Below are positions 4,869-49,593 of a stretch of DNA of 64,000 nt, piece after piece. The stretch comes from Candidatus Rokuibacteriota bacterium (lineage in GTDB: Bacteria; Methylomirabilota; Methylomirabilia; Rokubacteriales; CSP1-6): contig JACQFL010000050.1 of the NCBI GenBank assembly GCA_016200085.1, forward strand, positions 115,088-179,087, in the 5' to 3' direction. Each line of letters begins with the position of its first letter. Position 1 is the stretch's first letter. A program made the position numbers and the translations under genes. The notes beneath the pieces were generated by a model, which saw only the letters and a list, made by a program, of their open reading frames with translations, had not been told where the DNA came from and did no database searches.

Positions 4869-6185
4869 ATGAGCGATCGCTCAGCGGCCGAGGAGCTCCA
4901 CGAGCGGCTCAGCGGGACGCCGACCATCGGCGTCGTGGGCCTGGGTTACGTCGGCCTGCCCCTGGCGGTGGCCTTCGCCGAGTCGGGCGCCCGCGTCGTC
5001 GGCATCGACCTCGATCCCGCGCGCGTGGCCGGCGTCACCGGCGGACGGAGCTTCGTGGAGGACGTGCCCACGGAGGCGCTGCGGCGCCTCGTGGCCTCCG
5101 GCCGTCTGAGCGCGACCGACGACTTCGCGGTCCTCAAGGACGCCGACGCCATCGTCATCTGCGTGCCGACGCCGCTCGGCAAGTCCAAGGAGCCCGACAT
5201 CTCGTTCGTCGTCGGCGCGGCCGACGCGGTGGCGGCGGTCGCCCGGCGGGCGCAGCTCGTGGTGCTCGAATCGACGACCTATCCCGGCAGCACCCAGGAA
5301 ATCCTCCAGCCACGGCTCGAGGCGCGTGGCCTCACGCCGGGCGAAGACGTCTTCCTCGCCTTCTCGCCCGAGCGCATCGATCCCGGCAACCGGCAGTTCG
5401 GGCTGCACAACATCCCCAAGGTCGTGGGCGGCCTCACCCCGCTCTGCCGCGAGCTCGCCATCGCGCTCTACGCGCGCATCACGCCCCGGGTGGTGACCGT
5501 CTCCAGCCCCGCCACCGCGGAGATGGTGAAGCTGCTCGAGAACACCTTCCGCTCGGTGAACATCGCGCTCGCCAACGAGTTCGCGATCATGTGCCGCCGG
5601 CTCGGCATCTCGGTGTGGGAGGTCATCGGGGCCGCCGCCACCAAGCCCTTCGGCTTCATGCCGTTCTATCCCGGGCCGGGGCTCGGCGGTCACTGCCTGC
5701 CCTCCGATCCGCACTACCTCAGCTGGAAGGTGCGCCTGGCCGGCTACGAGCCGCGCTTCATCTCGTTCGCCGACGAGATCAATCGCCAGATGCCCACGTA
5801 CGTCCTCCAGATGGTCACCGACGCGCTCAACGACGGCGGCCGCGCCGTGCGCGGCTCCCGCATCCTCGCCCTCGGCGTGGCCTACAAGCCGAACGTCGCC
5901 GATGTGCGCGACTCGCCCGCGCTCGAGATCGTCGAGGCCCTGGTGCTCAAGGGCGCCCGCGTCGCCTACGCCGACCCCTTCGTGCCCGCCATCAGCATCA
6001 GCGGGGTGAGCCTGCGCGCGGTGGACCTGGACGCGGTGGACGTCGCCGACTGGGACGTGGTCCTCGCGCTCACCGCGCACGCCAGCTTCGACTGGCCTCG
6101 GATCGTCCGCCGCGCGCGCCTCGTCATCGACACCCGGAACGCGACGGCGGCGCTCGGGCCGTCCCGCAACGTCATCAAGCTCTGA
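4869..6185 (+). CDS. nucleotide-sugar dehydrogenase (UDP-glucose/GDP-mannose dehydrogenase family; Ugd/WecC-like)
   Basis: MSDRSAAEELHERLSGTPTIGVVGLGYVGLPLAVAFAESGARVVGIDLD carries the N-terminal NAD Rossmann fold, with a catalytic-Cys region (GLGGHCLPSDPHYL). The ATG at 4869 lies just after the aminotransferase stop. Confidence 0.85.
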   Translation: MSDRSAAEELHERLSGTPTIGVVGLGYVGLPLAVAFAESGARVVGIDLDPARVAGVTGGRSFVEDVPTEALRRLVASGRLSATDDFAVLKDADAIVICVPTPLGKSKEPDISFVVGAADAVAAVARRAQLVVLESTTYPGSTQEILQPRLEARGLTPGEDVFLAFSPERIDPGNRQFGLHNIPKVVGGLTPLCRELAIALYARITPRVVTVSSPATAEMVKLLENTFRSVNIALANEFAIMCRRLGISVWEVIGAAATKPFGFMPFYPGPGLGGHCLPSDPHYLSWKVRLAGYEPRFISFADEINRQMPTYVLQMVTDALNDGGRAVRGSRILALGVAYKPNVADVRDSPALEIVEALVLKGARVAYADPFVPAISISGVSLRAVDLDAVDVADWDVVLALTAHASFDWPRIVRRARLVIDTRNATAALGPSRNVIKL

Positions 6186-7060
6186 TTCCCGCGCTGCTCT
6201 CGTCGCTCCGGCCCCGCCAGTGGGTCAAGAATCTGTTCGTCTTCGCCGGGCTCATCTTCGGCCACCGCCTGTTCACGCCCCTGGTGTGGCCCGCCCTTGG
6301 CGCCTTCGCCATCTTCTGCGCGCTGTCGGGGGCAATCTACCTGCTCAACGACGTGGCCGACCGCGACAAGGACCGGCTGCACCCGACCAAGCGGCTCCGG
6401 CCCATCGCCTCCGGCCGGCTGTCCGTGCCGGCCGCGGTGACGGCCGCCGTCGTGCTCGTCGCGGCGGGCCTGGCCGCGGGAACCCGCCTGGGCCACGCCT
6501 TCGTCGGCGTCGCCCTCGCCTACGCCATCCTCCTGACGGTGTACTCGGCATGGCTCAAGCACTTCGTCATCGTGGACGTGCTGGTGGTGTCGGCCGGCTT
6601 CGTGCTCCGGGCCGTGGGGGGGGCGGTGGCCGTGGATGTCGAGATCTCGGGCTGGCTCCTGATCTGCACGATCCTGATCGCGCTCTTCCTCGCCCTCGGC
6701 AAGCGGCGGTACGAGTACCTCGCGCTCGGCGAGGCGGCCGGCCGCTACCGCCCCATCCTCGCCGAGTACAGCGCGGGCCTGCTCGACCAGATGATCGCCG
6801 TGGTGACCGCCTCCACCGTGACCGCGTACGCGCTCTACACGATGTCGCCGGAGACGGTGGCCAAGTTCCACACGCACCTGCTGCCCGCCACGCTGCCCTT
6901 CGTGCTCTACGGCATCTTCCGATACCTCTATCTCCTGTACGCGCGGCAGCTCGGCGGCAACCCCTCGGAGCTCTTCCTCAACGACCTGCCCCTGCTCGCC
7001 AACACCGTGCTCTGGATCCTCGCGGTGCTCGCGCTCATCTACGGCCCGCGCCTCGGGTAG
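6182..7060 (+). CDS. UbiA-family prenyltransferase, decaprenyl-phosphate phosphoribosyltransferase-like
   Basis: LRPRQWVKNLFVFAGLIFG...YLLNDVADRDKDRLHPTKRLRPIASG carries the NDxxDxxxD motif and multiple TM helices. No ATG/GTG/TTG precedes the conserved N-terminus, so a CTG (6182) or ATT start is inferred. The TAG stop forms part of the TAGAAT box of the next gene. Confidence 0.7.
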   Translation: MIPALLSSLRPRQWVKNLFVFAGLIFGHRLFTPLVWPALGAFAIFCALSGAIYLLNDVADRDKDRLHPTKRLRPIASGRLSVPAAVTAAVVLVAAGLAAGTRLGHAFVGVALAYAILLTVYSAWLKHFVIVDVLVVSAGFVLRAVGGAVAVDVEISGWLLICTILIALFLALGKRRYEYLALGEAAGRYRPILAEYSAGLLDQMIAVVTASTVTAYALYTMSPETVAKFHTHLLPATLPFVLYGIFRYLYLLYARQLGGNPSELFLNDLPLLANTVLWILAVLALIYGPRLG

Positions 7061-7072
7061 AATCGGAGCGGC

Positions 7073-9718
7073 ATGCCGAGCCAGGTCGCCGTCCTGCGCA
7101 CGCGCCCCGAGACCGTCGTCGAGGACTACGGGCGCCTCATGCGGCTGGTGAAGTACGACCAGATCCTCTCGCGCGACACCGATCTCATCCTCAAGCTGAA
7201 CCTCTCGTGGACGAAGTACTTCCCGGCGTGCTCGAGCCAGCCCTGGCAGGTCGACGGCATCCTCAAGACGCTGGTCGACGACGGCTACGAGCGGCGGCGC
7301 CTGCTCCCCGTCGAGAACAAGACCGTGGTCACCAACCCCGACGAGGGCTGCCGCGCCAACAAGTGGCGGCCCGTGCTCCAGCGCCACGGCGTCGGCTTCA
7401 CCGCGCTGCCCGACGTCGAGTGGATCGTCTATCCGTTCAGGTCGCCCCTGCTGAAGCTCAACCGGATCTTTCCCGAGGGCATCCAGATCCCGAAGCTGTA
7501 CCCGGGCAAGAACGTGCTCCACCTGCCCACCGTGAAGTGCGTCCATCCAGATACGGAGATCTTGCTCAGCGACGGCAGATTGATTGGTGCTGAGAGCCTC
7601 GTGAAGGAGTGGCAGGTTCGGGAGCCCGTGCAGTGGCTGCCTGACGGCGATGCCGTCAGTGAAGGTGAGACGAGCGTGGTCTCACTTCGACCAGACGGGC
7701 TCCGCGGTGATCATGCCACCCACTTCTGGCGTACCCCGGTGACCGATGGGCTCGTGTGTGCCATCCGGACTCGTACTGGTCGGCAGGTGACGACATCGAC
7801 GGCACACCCATTCCTTACGCCTGAGGGTTGGAAGCGCGCGACAGACATACGTGTCGGCGACAGAATCGCGGTGGCCCGAAGAATTAGAATTCAAGGTCGC
7901 AGCCAACCGTTGCCCGCAGTCCCAGCGCTGGGCCACGACTCGCTCGATCTCGAGCAGTTGGAGTTTGAGGAGCAACCGCGGTTAACCGTACACGCCCAGC
8001 GCTCGATTGTTCGTGACTATCTCGACGGCGAAACGGTCGCGGAGATCGCTCGCAGGCTTCATGTGGGGCGAAAGATAGTACTGCGATTGCTCGACCGGTG
8101 CGGTGTCACTCTACGTGGTCCGTGGGTGTGGGCCCGTGTTCCCGGCGAGACATCGACGGACTTTTGGCGCTGGATGGGCTACTTCGTTGCGGAGGGTTGG
8201 GCGAGAGAGAACCATGGGTCGTTGGCGATCAACGTCGCCAACAACGATCCCGAGATCCGATCTGATTACATGGCTTTGTGCAAATCGCTATTCGGAGTAT
8301 TGCCTAGAGAGAACGCTGGGACGCTGCGGTTTAATGCCTCGAATTTGAGAAGCTTGTTCGCGCATCTCGGTTTTCGTCCGCCGACGAACGCTGCGACGAA
8401 GCATGTGCCCGATGTGTTGTTCAAGTGCCCCGATGAGGAAATCTCGGGATTCCTATCGGGGTACTTCGACGGGGACGGCACAGTTGGACCCGACGGTGTA
8501 CACGCAACCACGAAGAGTCCGCGCTTGGCCAGTCAGATCCAGATGCTGCTGGCGCGTCTCGGTGTACTCGCGTTTGTAGGTGTGTCGCGCTGCAAGGCCA
8601 CCAATCGCCCATGGACGAAGACTCAGGACTACGCAAAGATCTCGATCTATGGGCAGGATGTCGTTACATTCGCGCGTTGGGTCGGGTTTCGTTGCGCCCG
8701 CAAGCGAGCCCGGCTCCAAGAACTGGTACGTCGGCGGGCGAACGGCAGGCAACCAAGTCACTGGGATACTGTTCCAGTGCCTCCCGCTTTGTTTCGATTC
8801 GTGCGGGAGGGGCTCAAGATCACCCATCGCAGTTCGGAACGCCAGAGTGCGGTCAGCAACATTGAATGGAAACATACTGAACCTACTCGACCAGTCGTTC
8901 AGTATTTCGTTGATCTATTCGAACGACATGATACGAGCGGCCGTTTCCGCGATGAGATCGCGTATATGCGCTACCTCGCGCAAGACGACATTGCGTGGGA
9001 TCGAGTGTCGGACAAGGCTGAAAAGGCAGCTGAAGTCCCGTACCTCTACGATCTTTCAGTACGCGATTCGCGGTCGTTTATCGGCAACGGAATCGTTCTC
9101 CATAACACCCACGGCCACTCTGTCACAACGGGAGCGATAAAGAACAGCTTCGGAGGCTTGCTGAAGGAAGCCCGACACTATGCTCATGAGTTTATGCATG
9201 ACGTACTGGTTGACCTCATGTATATGCAGCGTGAGATCCATCCAGCCGCTCTGGCGGTGATGGACGGGACGGTCATGGGCGACGGCGCCGGCCCCCGTAC
9301 GATGGTGCCGCGCGAGGGCAACCTGATCCTGGCCTCGGCGGACCAGGTCGCCATCGACGCCATCGCCGCGCGGATCATGGGCTTCGACCCGCTCGCCATC
9401 CCGTACCTCCGGATGTGCCACGAGCGCGGGCTCGGGGTGGCGGACCCCCGCGACATCGAGATCGTCGGCGACGAGGACGCGGCGCGGGTCAGCATGGGCT
9501 TCAAGACCAGCCGCAGCCTGGTGATCTGGGGCGACCAGCTCATCCGGCGCGGCCCGCTCAGGCCGCTCAAGCGCCTGCTGCTGCACTCCCCCCTGGTGGT
9601 CTGGGCCCCCTTCGCCTCGAACGTCTACCACGACCTGCTCTGGTACCCGACGGTCGGCCGCGCCCGCATCCGCGCCTTCCGCGCCACGCCCTGGGGAGCC
9701 CTCTTCGAGAAGTACTGA
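7073..9718 (+). CDS. DUF362-family protein interrupted by an in-frame intein (precursor 881 aa; predicted spliced product ~358 aa)
   Basis: The N-extein (155 aa, ...ILKLNLSW...KNVLHLPTVK) and C-extein (203 aa, THGHSVTTGAIKNSFGGLL...VMDGTVMGDGAGP...) join to a normal DUF362-like protein. The internal 523 aa have intein splice-junction and LAGLIDADG motifs. Confidence 0.8.
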   Translation: MPSQVAVLRTRPETVVEDYGRLMRLVKYDQILSRDTDLILKLNLSWTKYFPACSSQPWQVDGILKTLVDDGYERRRLLPVENKTVVTNPDEGCRANKWRPVLQRHGVGFTALPDVEWIVYPFRSPLLKLNRIFPEGIQIPKLYPGKNVLHLPTVKCVHPDTEILLSDGRLIGAESLVKEWQVREPVQWLPDGDAVSEGETSVVSLRPDGLRGDHATHFWRTPVTDGLVCAIRTRTGRQVTTSTAHPFLTPEGWKRATDIRVGDRIAVARRIRIQGRSQPLPAVPALGHDSLDLEQLEFEEQPRLTVHAQRSIVRDYLDGETVAEIARRLHVGRKIVLRLLDRCGVTLRGPWVWARVPGETSTDFWRWMGYFVAEGWARENHGSLAINVANNDPEIRSDYMALCKSLFGVLPRENAGTLRFNASNLRSLFAHLGFRPPTNAATKHVPDVLFKCPDEEISGFLSGYFDGDGTVGPDGVHATTKSPRLASQIQMLLARLGVLAFVGVSRCKATNRPWTKTQDYAKISIYGQDVVTFARWVGFRCARKRARLQELVRRRANGRQPSHWDTVPVPPALFRFVREGLKITHRSSERQSAVSNIEWKHTEPTRPVVQYFVDLFERHDTSGRFRDEIAYMRYLAQDDIAWDRVSDKAEKAAEVPYLYDLSVRDSRSFIGNGIVLHNTHGHSVTTGAIKNSFGGLLKEARHYAHEFMHDVLVDLMYMQREIHPAALAVMDGTVMGDGAGPRTMVPREGNLILASADQVAIDAIAARIMGFDPLAIPYLRMCHERGLGVADPRDIEIVGDEDAARVSMGFKTSRSLVIWGDQLIRRGPLRPLKRLLLHSPLVVWAPFASNVYHDLLWYPTVGRARIRAFRATPWGALFEKY
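7538..9106 (+). mobile_element. intein with LAGLIDADG homing-endonuclease domain (523 aa) inserted in the DUF362 gene
   Basis: Starts with Cys (CVHPDTEILLSDG). Block-B TxxH is present (TTSTAHPFLTPEGW). LAGLIDADG motifs are WMGYFVAEGW and SGYFDGDGTV. The intein ends GIVLHN and is followed by Thr (+1 nucleophile). Local GC is clearly lower than the flanks. Confidence 0.8.
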
Positions 9719-9848: not shown

Positions 9849-11273
9849 GTGAGCCCCTCCCCGCCAGGGACCGTGCGTGTGCGCTTCGCTCCGAGCCCGA
9901 CCGGCCATCTGCACATCGGCGGCGCGCGGACGGCGCTCTTCAACTGGCTGTTCGCCCGCCACCACGGCGGGGCGTTCATCTTGAGGATCGAGGACACCGA
10001 CCGTTCGCGCTCCACCGACGAGACCATCACGTCGATCGTCGACGCACTGGGATGGCTGGGCCTGGACTGGGACGAGGGCCCGCCGGCGCCAGGCTACCGG
10101 CAGACCGAGCGGATGGACCTCTACCGCGCGCACGCGGCGCGGCTGCTCGCGGCGGGCCGGGCGTACTACTGCGACTGCCCGCCCGAGATGCTGGAGCGCG
10201 AGCGGCAGGAGGCCGAGCGGCGCAAGGAGACCTTCCGCTACTCCGGACGATGTCGGGGGCGCGGGTTGACGATGGGCGCGCTCAGGCTGCGCATCCCGGC
10301 CGAGGGCGCGACGGTGGTCAACGACCTCATCCACGGGCCGGTAACCTTCGAGCACCGCCAGCTCGACGACTGGATCCTGGTCCGCACGGACGGCACGCCA
10401 ACCTACAACTTCTGCGTGGTCGTCGACGACGTGACCATGCGCATCACCCACGTCATCCGCGGCAACGACCACCTGTCGAACACTCCCAAGCAGATCCTGT
10501 GCTACGAGGCGCTCGACTATCTCGTGCCGGAGTTCGCCCACGTTTCGATGATCCTCGGCGCCGACCGCCGCCGGCTGTCCAAGCGTCACGGCGCCACCTC
10601 GGTGCAGGCGTTCCGCGAGGCGGGCATCCTCCCGGAGGCGATGGTGAACTACCTCGCCCGGCTGGGCTGGGCGCACGGCGACCAGGAGGTATTCTCGCGC
10701 GAGGACCTCGTCGAGCTCTTCGACATCAAGCACGTCGGGGCCTCGGGCGCGGTGTTCGACCAGGCCAAGCTCGAGTGGCTGTCGCAGGAGTACGTCAAGC
10801 GGCTGCCCGCGGCCGACCTCGCGCGGCGGCTGGGGCCGTTCCTCGCCGCGGCGGGACTGGTTCCGCGCGAGACGCCGGGCTGGCTCGAGGGCGTGGTGGA
10901 GACCTTGCGCGAGCGGGCGAAGACCCTCGTGGAGATGGTGGAGCGCGGCCGGTTCTACTTCGAGCGGCCGGCCGGCTACGACCCGAAGCCGGCCCCGAAG
11001 TTCCTGACTGCCGAGGGCGCGCGGCGGCTCCGCCTGCTCGCCGAGCGTCTCGCCGCGGACCGGGTGTTCACCGCGGCGTCGATCGAGGCGGTGTACCGCG
11101 GGCTGATCGAGGCGCTCGGGCTCACGCTCGTGGATCTCGCCCAGCTCACCCGCCTGGCCGTCACGGGGACGACGGCCTCGCCGCCCATCTTCGACGTCCT
11201 CGCGCTCCTCGGCCGCGAGGAGACCGTGGCGCGGCTCGCGACGGCCCGCGCGGTGGCGGAGGCCGTCCGGTGA
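9849..11273 (+). CDS. gltX: glutamate--tRNA ligase
   Basis: VRVRFAPSPTGHLHIGGARTALFNWLFARHHGG (HIGH motif) and the KMSKS-like LSKRHG. 474 aa. Confidence 0.9.
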   Translation: MSPSPPGTVRVRFAPSPTGHLHIGGARTALFNWLFARHHGGAFILRIEDTDRSRSTDETITSIVDALGWLGLDWDEGPPAPGYRQTERMDLYRAHAARLLAAGRAYYCDCPPEMLERERQEAERRKETFRYSGRCRGRGLTMGALRLRIPAEGATVVNDLIHGPVTFEHRQLDDWILVRTDGTPTYNFCVVVDDVTMRITHVIRGNDHLSNTPKQILCYEALDYLVPEFAHVSMILGADRRRLSKRHGATSVQAFREAGILPEAMVNYLARLGWAHGDQEVFSREDLVELFDIKHVGASGAVFDQAKLEWLSQEYVKRLPAADLARRLGPFLAAAGLVPRETPGWLEGVVETLRERAKTLVEMVERGRFYFERPAGYDPKPAPKFLTAEGARRLRLLAERLAADRVFTAASIEAVYRGLIEALGLTLVDLAQLTRLAVTGTTASPPIFDVLALLGREETVARLATARAVAEAVR

Positions 11274-47924: not shown

Positions 47925-48254
47925 CCGTTCGCTCCTCCCATCGTGTGGTTGGGTGCCTCCCATCCTCCCTCGCGCGACGGTGCGCGAGTCCGTTCATTTC
48001 GTCACTGTCAACTGCGCGTCGACCGAATGCAAGGAAAAACTGCGCTCGCGACGCGCGCCGAGGCGCCGGCGAGGCCCGCCCAAAGGTGCTCGCGGACGCG
48101 TTTTTTTCTTGCAATCGCAAAAACCGGACCATACAGTGACTTCAATTGACTGACGCGGCGAGATTTTTCGTCGCGCGAGCGGCGGCGCCGGGCGACGGGC
48201 CGCAGGAGACGTGCGGTAGATGACTGGACCGGACCAGACAGGAGGGAACGTGGA

Positions 48255-48665
48255 TTGAACGCGCTGGGACGCCATCTCCTCCTCGAGTTGTTCGATTGCG
48301 ACTCCGACGCCATCAACGACCTCGAGACCGTGAAGGGCGCTCTGGTCGAAGCGGCGAAGCGGGCACAGGCCACCATCGTCGACGTCGTCTTCCACGAGTT
48401 CAACCCGTTCGGCATCAGCGGTGTCGTCGTCATCGCCGAATCGCACCTCTCGGTCCACACCTGGCCCGAGTACCGGTACGCCGCGGTCGACATCTTCTCC
48501 TGCGGCGACACCCTGCAGCCGGAGATCGCGGCCACCTACCTCGTGAAGGAGTTCGGCGCCGGGAAGACCTCGGTGGTCGATGTCCAGCGAGGCATGTTCC
48601 TCAACGCGCCGAGGCCCCTCAACAACAAGACGGTGACCAGCAAGGCGGCAGTCGCCTTCCGTTGA
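48255..48665 (+). CDS. speH: S-adenosylmethionine decarboxylase proenzyme (small bacterial/archaeal type)
   Basis: VVVIAESHLSVHTWPEYRYAAVDIFSCG has the E-S self-cleavage site. TTG start with RBS GGAGGGA. Confidence 0.85.
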   Translation: MNALGRHLLLELFDCDSDAINDLETVKGALVEAAKRAQATIVDVVFHEFNPFGISGVVVIAESHLSVHTWPEYRYAAVDIFSCGDTLQPEIAATYLVKEFGAGKTSVVDVQRGMFLNAPRPLNNKTVTSKAAVAFR

Positions 48666-48672
48666 TCACCCC

Positions 48673-49593
48673 TTGATCACTCCACAGTCGTACAAGTGGT
48701 TCTTCGAGCCCACCACCCCCGTCGAGGGGCACATGCACGCCATCCGGCGGACGGTGGTCGAGGCCCAGACCAAGTTCCAGCACGTCGAGATCCTGGAAAC
48801 CGCCGCCTATGGCAAGACCTTGATCCTCGACGGGAGGATCCAGTCCAGCCAGGGTGACGAGTTCATCTACCACGAGGCGCTCTGTCACCCCGGCCTGCTC
48901 GCCGTGGAGGGGGCGCCCCGGAGCGCGCTCGTCATCGGCGGGGGCGAGGGCGCCACCCTGCGCGAGATCCTCCGCTACCCCTCGATCCAGCGGGCGGTCA
49001 TGGTCGACATCGACGGCGAGGTCGTCGAGCTGTGCCGGCAGCACCTGCCCGAGATGCACCGGGGCGCCTTCGACGACCCCCGCACGGAGGTGCGTCACGA
49101 AGACGCTCGCGCCTACCTCGAGCACGGCCGCGAGCCGTTCGATTTCATCACCATCGATCTCACCGAGCCCCTCGAGGAGGGACCCGCCTGCATGCTCTTC
49201 ACCCGGGAGTTCTACGGCCTCGTCCGCGACCGCCTGACGCCGGGCGGGGCCATGACCCTGCAAGCCGGCATGACCAAGATCGGGGAGCTCGCCTTCTACA
49301 CCTCGATCCACCGCACGCTGCGCGAGGTCTTTCCAATCGTCGCCGGCTACCAGACGTTCATCTCGTGCTTCGGCACGCCGTGGGGCTTCATCGCGGCCAC
49401 CAGAAAGGTCGATCCGCGCAAGCAGGACGCCGCCGCGATCGACCGCCTGATCGCGGACCGCGTGAAGGGTGACCTGGCGTACTGGGACGGGCAGACCCAC
49501 CTGCACGCCTTCGGGCTGCCGAAGTTCGTGCGCAAGGCCATCGACGCCCAGAGCCGCATCGTCACGGACCGGAACCCCTTGATCGTGTCCTGA
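48673..49593 (+). CDS. speE: spermidine synthase
   Basis: WFFE...ILDGRIQSSQGDEFIYHEAL...VIGGGEGATLREIL...VDIDGEVVE are spermidine-synthase motifs. TTG start. Confidence 0.85.
   Translation: MITPQSYKWFFEPTTPVEGHMHAIRRTVVEAQTKFQHVEILETAAYGKTLILDGRIQSSQGDEFIYHEALCHPGLLAVEGAPRSALVIGGGEGATLREILRYPSIQRAVMVDIDGEVVELCRQHLPEMHRGAFDDPRTEVRHEDARAYLEHGREPFDFITIDLTEPLEEGPACMLFTREFYGLVRDRLTPGGAMTLQAGMTKIGELAFYTSIHRTLREVFPIVAGYQTFISCFGTPWGFIAATRKVDPRKQDAAAIDRLIADRVKGDLAYWDGQTHLHAFGLPKFVRKAIDAQSRIVTDRNPLIVS

Follow-up and report, generated by a model that had tools for sequence, protein, structure and literature searches.

A low-GC3 island in a Rokubacteria DUF362 gene begins at an intein splice junction and ends inside the C-extein

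Homing of inteins and introns can carry along host sequence that flanks the element, and such co-conversion is known from the yeast VMA1 intein with its endonuclease PI-SceI and from the intron and free-standing endonucleases of phage T4. Atypical codon usage and an atypical G+C content at third codon positions (GC3) are said, following Lawrence and Ochman, to mark foreign DNA, which reportedly drifts toward host composition over time. In the Rhodothermus marinus DnaB intein, the contrast between the codon usage of the intein and that of its extein has been taken as evidence of recent homing (Liu and Hu, 1997, as summarized in PMC5056185), and in the MCM and PolB inteins of haloarchaea at least the flanking codon is carried along with the element, a flanking proline having been co-converted (PMC10643990). 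Here, we describe a predicted class-1 intein with an intact two-motif LAGLIDADG homing endonuclease, inserted into a DUF362-family gene in a 64,000-nt stretch of a Rokubacteria genome of about 72% GC (contig JACQFL010000050.1, positions 115,088 to 179,087; the window hereafter, to which all coordinates refer). The low GC3 of this intein continues into 144 nt of the C-extein. With a probability of roughly 0.7, we attribute this pattern to homing driven by the endonuclease, with a lower-GC3 allele as donor, accompanied by one-sided 3' co-conversion of about 144 nt and superimposed on an AT offset of the whole intein family.

Composition and edges of the island

The precursor gene occupies 7073..9718 on the forward strand (881 aa plus stop codon, from the open reading frame [ORF] list and Pfam). 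The intein, as located by its junctions and profile matches, lies at 7538..9106 (523 codons, aa 156–678, from Cys1 to His-Asn and followed by Thr+1), essentially where the original prediction, made from the DNA letters, had put it (7540..9100). The sharp GC drop proposed there was borne out, as the GC content of the intein is 0.583, compared with 0.667 and 0.675 in the exteins and 0.722 in the window, and the intein constitutes the deepest GC trough of the 64 kb (z = -5.8 in 1569-nt sliding windows; windows outside the intein region have a mean of 0.727, a standard deviation [sd] of 0.025 and a minimum of 0.653). Both low-GC strings that had been quoted were found, at 7550 and 8017. At first, second and third codon positions, GC is 0.63, 0.39 and 0.98 in the N-extein and 0.63, 0.48 and 0.64 in the intein, and GC3 at four-fold sites is 1.00 and 0.63, respectively. 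Nearly all of the drop is synonymous and resides at third codon positions.

Along the gene, GC3 changes from 0.98 in the N-extein (155 codons, 7073..7537) to 0.64 in the intein and 0.60 in the first 48 codons of the C-extein (144 nt, 9107..9250), before rising to 0.99 in the distal C-extein (9251..9718). The codon adaptation index (CAI) of the same four segments, all on the forward strand, is 0.865, 0.288, 0.274 and 0.866, the outer two being host-like. The 16 high-confidence genes of the window from which the CAI was built score 0.767 +/- 0.032 and have a GC3 of 0.94 +/- 0.012; the intein thus deviates clearly from its flanking genes in codon adaptation as well as in sliding-window GC. Four codons that had been singled out as rare elsewhere in the window are indeed enriched in the intein relative to these reference genes, with 32.5 vs 9.1 occurrences per 1000 codons for GAT (3.6-fold), 13.4 vs 1.0 for AGA (13-fold), 1.9 vs 0.1 for TTA and 3.8 vs 0.1 for ATA (both more than 14-fold, from one and two occurrences, respectively). 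Stop codons summed over the six frames reach up to 44 per kb at the island vs 23.8 +/- 5.3 elsewhere, giving rise to the cluster of short alternate-frame ORFs that the original prediction had traced to the GC drop.

The edges of the island were placed by a maximum-likelihood scan of in-frame GC3 for two change points. The left edge fell at codons 154–158, within two codons of the N-terminal splice junction (codon 156), while the right edge fell at codons 726–730 (nt 9250–9262), 48–52 codons past the C-terminal junction at 9106. The expectation that the island boundaries coincide with the splice junctions therefore holds on the left and fails on the right, where the island extends into the C-extein. 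Codons ending in A or T account for 19 of the 48 codons of this putative co-conversion tract vs 5 of the 310 other extein codons (Fisher p = 2e-14), and among 6303 reference-gene windows of 48 codons, not one has a GC3 as low as the tract (their minimum being 0.646). In GC3 as well as in CAI, tract and intein are indistinguishable (p = 0.64). We considered an intein that really ends at codon 726, and ruled it out by the residue-for-residue alignment of the tract with intein-free proteins of 358 aa. Three of the six very rare extein residues of the window allele fall in the tract, the most conserved segment of the protein (p = 0.034). The distal C-extein starts at the DNA-conserved block MDGTVMGDGAGPRTM; spliced codons 206–216, right after the tract end, are more conserved at the DNA level among Rokubacteria alleles than any other stretch in this part of the gene, and we infer that exchanges resolve near the tract end because of this block.

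Orthologues lacking the intein are abundant. A search with the spliced extein returned 7,999 homologues at E <= 1e-20, and the best 120 of these are all intein-free, nearly all 358 aa long (354–363) and up to 88% identical; in 116 of the best 120, rounded query coverage is 100%, and they are colinear across the insertion site. The proximal C-extein is GC-rich at four syntenic intein-free loci with the order UbiA - DUF362 - gltX (L083–L086; GC3 0.875–0.896 in the 48-codon segment). Synonymous codon differences between these loci and the window allele amount to 0.45–0.50 in the tract vs 0.22–0.31 in the remaining gene. A mild GC3 dip at spliced codons 156–203 is seen even in L083–L086 (0.875–0.896 vs 0.92–0.955 elsewhere in the gene); it is non-significant, these loci being effectively two sequences (L085 and L086 are identical, L083 and L084 nearly so), and could be a faded relic of past intein occupancy or an intrinsic feature.

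Mobility and composition across the intein family

Close to 120 homologues of the intein were found, and every one that covers the region sits at the same DUF362 site. Divergence of the intein is decoupled from that of the host gene. Among 60 Rokubacteria-type alleles (1770 pairs), protein distances of inteins and exteins are uncorrelated (Spearman rho 0.056). This incongruence of element and host gene is seen at the level of the family; for the window allele it takes the form of a long-branch intein, basal in the Rokubacteria clade (mean identity 56.7% vs 67.3% among the others), in a typical extein (82.9% vs 83.4%).

Co-transfer of a flank was observed directly in a related pair of alleles, L093 and L100, which represent the Rokubacteria RIFCSPLOWO2_02_FULL_73_56 and GWA2_73_35 types (the intein DNA of L100 is the same as in L007 and L099). 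Nucleotide divergence between these alleles is 7.5% across the N-extein, roughly 9% over intein nt 1–192 and 9.7% across the distal C-extein, but just 0.9% over intein nt 193–1569 and 0.7% over a 49-codon tract that follows. They thus share a recently exchanged block comprising most of the intein and about 55 C-extein codons, on the flank that is also affected in the window. As the block starts inside the intein, the recombination took place between two intein-bearing alleles.

Most of 29 Rokubacteria-type alleles have 2–7 A/T-ending codons among the first 49 of the C-extein, while the alleles with the lowest intein GC3 have more (19 in the window allele, 15 in L093, 14 in L100, 11 in L009 and 10 in L113). 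Across the 29 alleles, intein GC3 correlates with this proximal count (rho -0.56, p = 0.0014; -0.52 without the window allele), whereas no such correlation exists on the N side (last 48 N-extein codons, rho 0.10). Right edges fitted to the individual alleles lie at +48 to +52 codons in the window allele, L113, L093 and L100, and at +31 in L009.

Base composition was compared in a set of 59 unique full-length alleles with DNA, obtained from genome and metagenome scans (L004–L045, L049, L087–L145). Their hosts comprise Rokubacteria, Chloroflexota/Anaerolineae, Binatia, Myxococcota, WOR-1, Nano-, Woese- and Parvarchaeota and Asgard archaea, with genomes of 30–72% GC. Intein GC3 lies below the GC3 of the allele's own extein in 59 of 59 cases (sign test p = 3e-18), including hosts with an extein GC3 of 0.25–0.35, and follows it closely over an extein GC3 of 0.25–0.99 (r = 0.96; regression, intein GC3 = 0.86 x extein - 0.04), the offset becoming larger as host GC rises. 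Were an intermediate-GC reservoir the source, the sign would be reversed in low-GC hosts; some of the deficit therefore belongs to the element itself as a standing feature. The AT offset of the family is systematic and does not constitute a donor signature.

The window allele stands out against this background, as its GC3 deficit of 0.345 is the largest among the 59 alleles and roughly double the baseline (0.170 +/- 0.054) set by the other Rokubacteria-type alleles, lying 3.2 sd above their mean. Only the deficit in excess of that baseline favors a recent import out of a lower-GC3 background.

The family also contains signs of decay. Both catalytic residues of the endonuclease are kept in 56 of the 59 alleles. 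In L098, Arg stands in place of the first catalytic Glu (intein aa ~219) and Ser in place of the terminal Asn; the same Glu is lost in L130 (Gly) and L045 (Lys). L025, L130 and L030 (455–474 aa) do not contain a helix-turn-helix (HTH)-like segment that is found in the window intein, and L137 is devoid of about 110 residues near its C-terminus. Degeneration of the endonuclease or of splice sites showed no link with the amelioration of GC3 over the 59 alleles (Mann-Whitney p = 0.51), and the notion that composition could serve as a clock of endonuclease decay, backed by anecdotes such as L098 and L025, was dropped.

Origin of the island

Based on these observations, we suggest the following sequence of events. 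The endonuclease would have cut an intein-free allele, and an intein-bearing allele less rich in GC at third positions would have served as the template for repair of the break. Along with the intein, about 144 nt of C-extein would have been copied from the donor, exclusively on the 3' side, and the exchange would have been resolved just ahead of the first strongly DNA-conserved block downstream. Since the protein is conserved in this region, the imported extein segment would differ mostly synonymously, that is, by a run of A/T-ending codons. The original prediction, which read the island as a sign of recent acquisition by homing, stands in part. Homing is supported by the tract, by the decoupling of intein and extein distances and by the block shared between L093 and L100, while recency does not follow from low GC3 alone, given an offset in all 59 alleles.

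Several observations weigh against this interpretation. A resident process that involves no transfer supplies some share of the deficit, as seen in all 59 alleles including those of low-GC archaea. Divergence of the tract at the protein level is raised just weakly: when identity was compared per segment (N-extein, tract, distal C-extein) with 208 homologues, the dip in the tract was weak and non-significant, because the region is too conserved for a test of this type. The L104 intein has a low GC3 (0.68) and yet lacks a tract (3 A/T-ending codons), and the p value of 0.0014 for the association of the two is optimistic, as the alleles are phylogenetically related. Positions of A/T-ending codons in the window tract are not shared with other tracts beyond chance (p = 0.2–0.9), which gives no evidence of recent common descent among the tracts; their similar ends, at +48 to +52, may be due to the conserved DNA block. 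Finally, neither a donor nor a near-identical intein was found by protein search or by genome and metagenome scans, the closest non-self intein among 5.8 billion proteins being 61% identical; a search with the tract alone (50 aa) gave two short matches, the query being too short to be informative. With no donor sampled, recency is relative rather than dated and import into the window allele is supported indirectly.

The family-wide offset invites the view that the intein is a long-term resident whose low GC3 reflects intrinsic drift under AT-biased mutation, with no recent transfer, because it escapes the codon selection or GC-biased gene conversion that holds host GC3 near 0.95. The uniform sign of the offset and its tight dependence on extein GC3 fit this idea, as does the absence from our set of the GC-richer inteins that an intermediate-GC reservoir would predict in low-GC archaea, and such drift probably accounts for the baseline deficit of about 0.17. 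As an explanation of the whole island we nevertheless consider it unlikely. It leaves unexplained why 48 conserved extein codons adopt the codon usage of the intein on one side only, in a segment that is GC-rich in intein-free orthologues and in most intein-bearing alleles, and why the deficit of the window allele is twice the Rokubacteria-type baseline; the decoupled phylogenies of intein and extein across the family also speak against it. Ordinary homologous recombination with a lower-GC relative, by transformation or transduction and with the intein as a passenger that requires no endonuclease break, would suit the start of the L093/L100 block at about intein nt 193 rather than at a junction. 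In the window, however, the left edge lies within two codons of the N-junction, as expected for break repair and otherwise a coincidence. Moreover, the endonuclease motifs are intact, with few losses of catalytic residues across the family, and the intein dN/dS of 0.12–0.34 indicates purifying selection, which together render a passenger scenario improbable.

We attach very little weight to the possibility that the run of rare codons is adaptive, slowing translation to give the intein time for folding and splicing before synthesis of the C-extein is complete. A length of about 48 codons is close to what the ribosome exit tunnel and a folding window would together span, and the end point is similar in the window allele, L113, L093/L100 and L009, but most alleles manage without a tract, the positions of A/T-ending codons are not conserved between alleles and the presence of a tract follows intein GC3, a signal of shared history. 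Since the source is a metagenome-assembled genome (MAG), a chimera joining a high-GC genome to a foreign intein fragment also has to be considered, and we regard it as hardly credible. Between the NCBI contig and two Logan assemblies, made independently from different runs, the gene shows 0 differences in 2646 nt, and all three cross both island edges, an agreement that argues against an assembly artefact; reading frame, splice junctions and UbiA - DUF362 - gltX synteny are likewise intact. The exact same protein is encoded in the Candidatus Rokubacteria (Methylomirabilota) MAG GCA_016178425.1 and in the two Logan assemblies, and the DNA of the gene is identical across these three. Homing with 3' co-conversion on top of the family offset thus remains the account that we favor.

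The precursor, its locus and known systems

On the precursor, Pfam detects Intein_splicing (PF14890) at 69 bits (cut-off 35.8) and LAGLIDADG_3 (PF14528) at 61.7 bits (cut-off 22.5), while the C-terminal half of DUF362 is matched at 58 bits (cut-off 24). Insertion is in frame, at the conserved motif …PTVK|THGH… of the DUF362 gene, and the splice junctions read …LPTVK|CVHPDTEILL… and …GNGIVLHN|THGHSV…. The site is identical in 90 of 90 homologous precursors; all 90 have Cys as the N-terminal nucleophile (Cys156 here, after …PTVK), and the +1 residue is Thr in 84, the window allele included, and Cys in six. The N-terminal splicing region with blocks A and B lies at 7538..7819 (forward strand, as are all features of the intein; TIGR01445, aa 156–249, 43.8 bits, cut-off 24.5), with the block B His (S-T-A-H) contained in TSTAHPFLTPEGW at 7793..7831. 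Between splicing and endonuclease domains, an HTH-like segment at 8003..8098 (aa 311–342) gives matches to HTH_23 and HTH_28 that are both under the Pfam cut-off; it is the segment missing from the 455–474-aa variants of the family. The first LAGLIDADG motif, FWRWMGYFVAEGWA (MGYFVAEGW), with the predicted catalytic Glu374, is at 8162..8203. The second, LSGYFDGDGTV, with the predicted catalytic Asp468, is at 8453..8485 within the LAGLIDADG_3 domain (8438..8686). Blocks F and G (VPYLYDLSV … GNGIVLHN) form the C-terminal splicing region at 9041..9106 (TIGR01443, aa 657–679, 22.7 bits, cut-off 15.6). The window intein keeps 109 of 113 family-conserved columns, which indicates that it is not decayed. 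A putative empty site for the endonuclease is present in L083 as AAGAACGTGCTCCACGCCCCCACGGTGAAG|ACCCACGGCCAC…, also given as …CCCACGGTGAAG|ACCCACGGCCAC….

Upstream of the DUF362 gene lies a UbiA gene (5591..7060) and downstream follow gltX (9849..11273), a histidine phosphatase gene and a Na/Pi cotransporter gene. The order UbiA prenyltransferase - DUF362 - glutamyl-tRNA synthetase - histidine phosphatase is common to the window and its intein-free relatives L085 and L086. The second-lowest GC spot of the window, at about 48000..48700 (0.59–0.65 in 200-nt windows), contains a candidate short gene (48150..48662) with the lowest CAI (0.59) among the ORFs used. Among the best 120 intein-free DUF362 proteins (P0001–P0120), 25 have Val at the +1 position, as in L085 and L086 (…PTQK|VHGH…). 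Val is unable to serve as the +1 splicing nucleophile, and the residue is Thr or Cys in every one of the 90 intein-bearing alleles; Val+1 alleles may be resistant to invasion. The same site is occupied in DPANN archaea (Nano-, Woese-, Parvarchaeota), Asgard archaea (Thor-, Hod-, Promethearchaeota) and several bacterial phyla, making this a cross-domain allele, with copies in the other lineages (L016, L018, L019, L022, L028, L035, L038, L049 and others) that are 33–45% identical to the window intein. Proteins of the family were already labelled "intein/homing endonuclease" by database annotators; no description of an intein from DUF362 or from Rokubacteria turned up in literature searches, and searches on intein GC content and amelioration returned nothing relevant. 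A PDB sequence search with the DUF362 extein gave nothing below E = 0.47.

The island is a well-resolved case of a known kind of event, and its mechanism is not new. It represents a probable homing scar inside a single gene that is sharp at one splice junction and overruns the other by 144 nt, and it documents the DUF362 intein allele as widespread, from Rokubacteria, Chloroflexota and Myxococcota to DPANN and Asgard archaea. Annotation pipelines and those that detect horizontal gene transfer should expect compositional islands that overrun intein boundaries, and the equation of low GC with recent acquisition needs calibration against the family-wide AT offset. A broader idea, which we put forward only tentatively, is that the intein and the adjoining 3' extein, over about 50 codons, move as one unit that is repeatedly bounded by the same conserved DNA block, with a standing AT offset across host GC3 from 25% to 99%. 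If the offset does represent escape from GC-biased gene conversion, the insertion being absent from most recombination partners, inteins would be natural internal controls by which the force pushing bacterial genomes toward high GC could be measured.

Among proteins of solved structure, the best sequence match over the LAGLIDADG core is PI-PkoII, the Pol intein of Thermococcus kodakarensis (PDB 2cw7, E = 4e-17), followed by V-ATPase inteins (7qsu and 7qss, E = 3e-9). With these, the window intein shares a two-motif LAGLIDADG endonuclease nested in a Hint splicing domain; it differs from them in host gene and site and in the additional HTH-like segment, and the similarity is distant and spans only about 140 residues. 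Compared with the classic compositional islands associated with Lawrence and Ochman, the island described here lies inside one ORF and has a protein-splice junction as one of its edges, and, unlike in their amelioration model, the standing AT offset in every host prevents composition from serving as a clean clock.

The argument from codon usage is the same as for the Rhodothermus marinus DnaB intein, with DUF362 instead of DnaB as the host. As far as that case is summarized in PMC5056185, its inteins are more alike than the exteins, whereas here the nearest intein is 61% identical and exteins reach 88%; also unlike the case as summarized there, the island at the present locus takes in 144 nt of extein. 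As in the haloarchaeal inteins (PMC10643990), adjacent host sequence appears to have been dragged along with the element, but the tract at the DUF362 site is visible purely by its synonymous composition, is restricted to about 48 codons on the 3' side and has an end point that recurs in several alleles beside a conserved DNA block.

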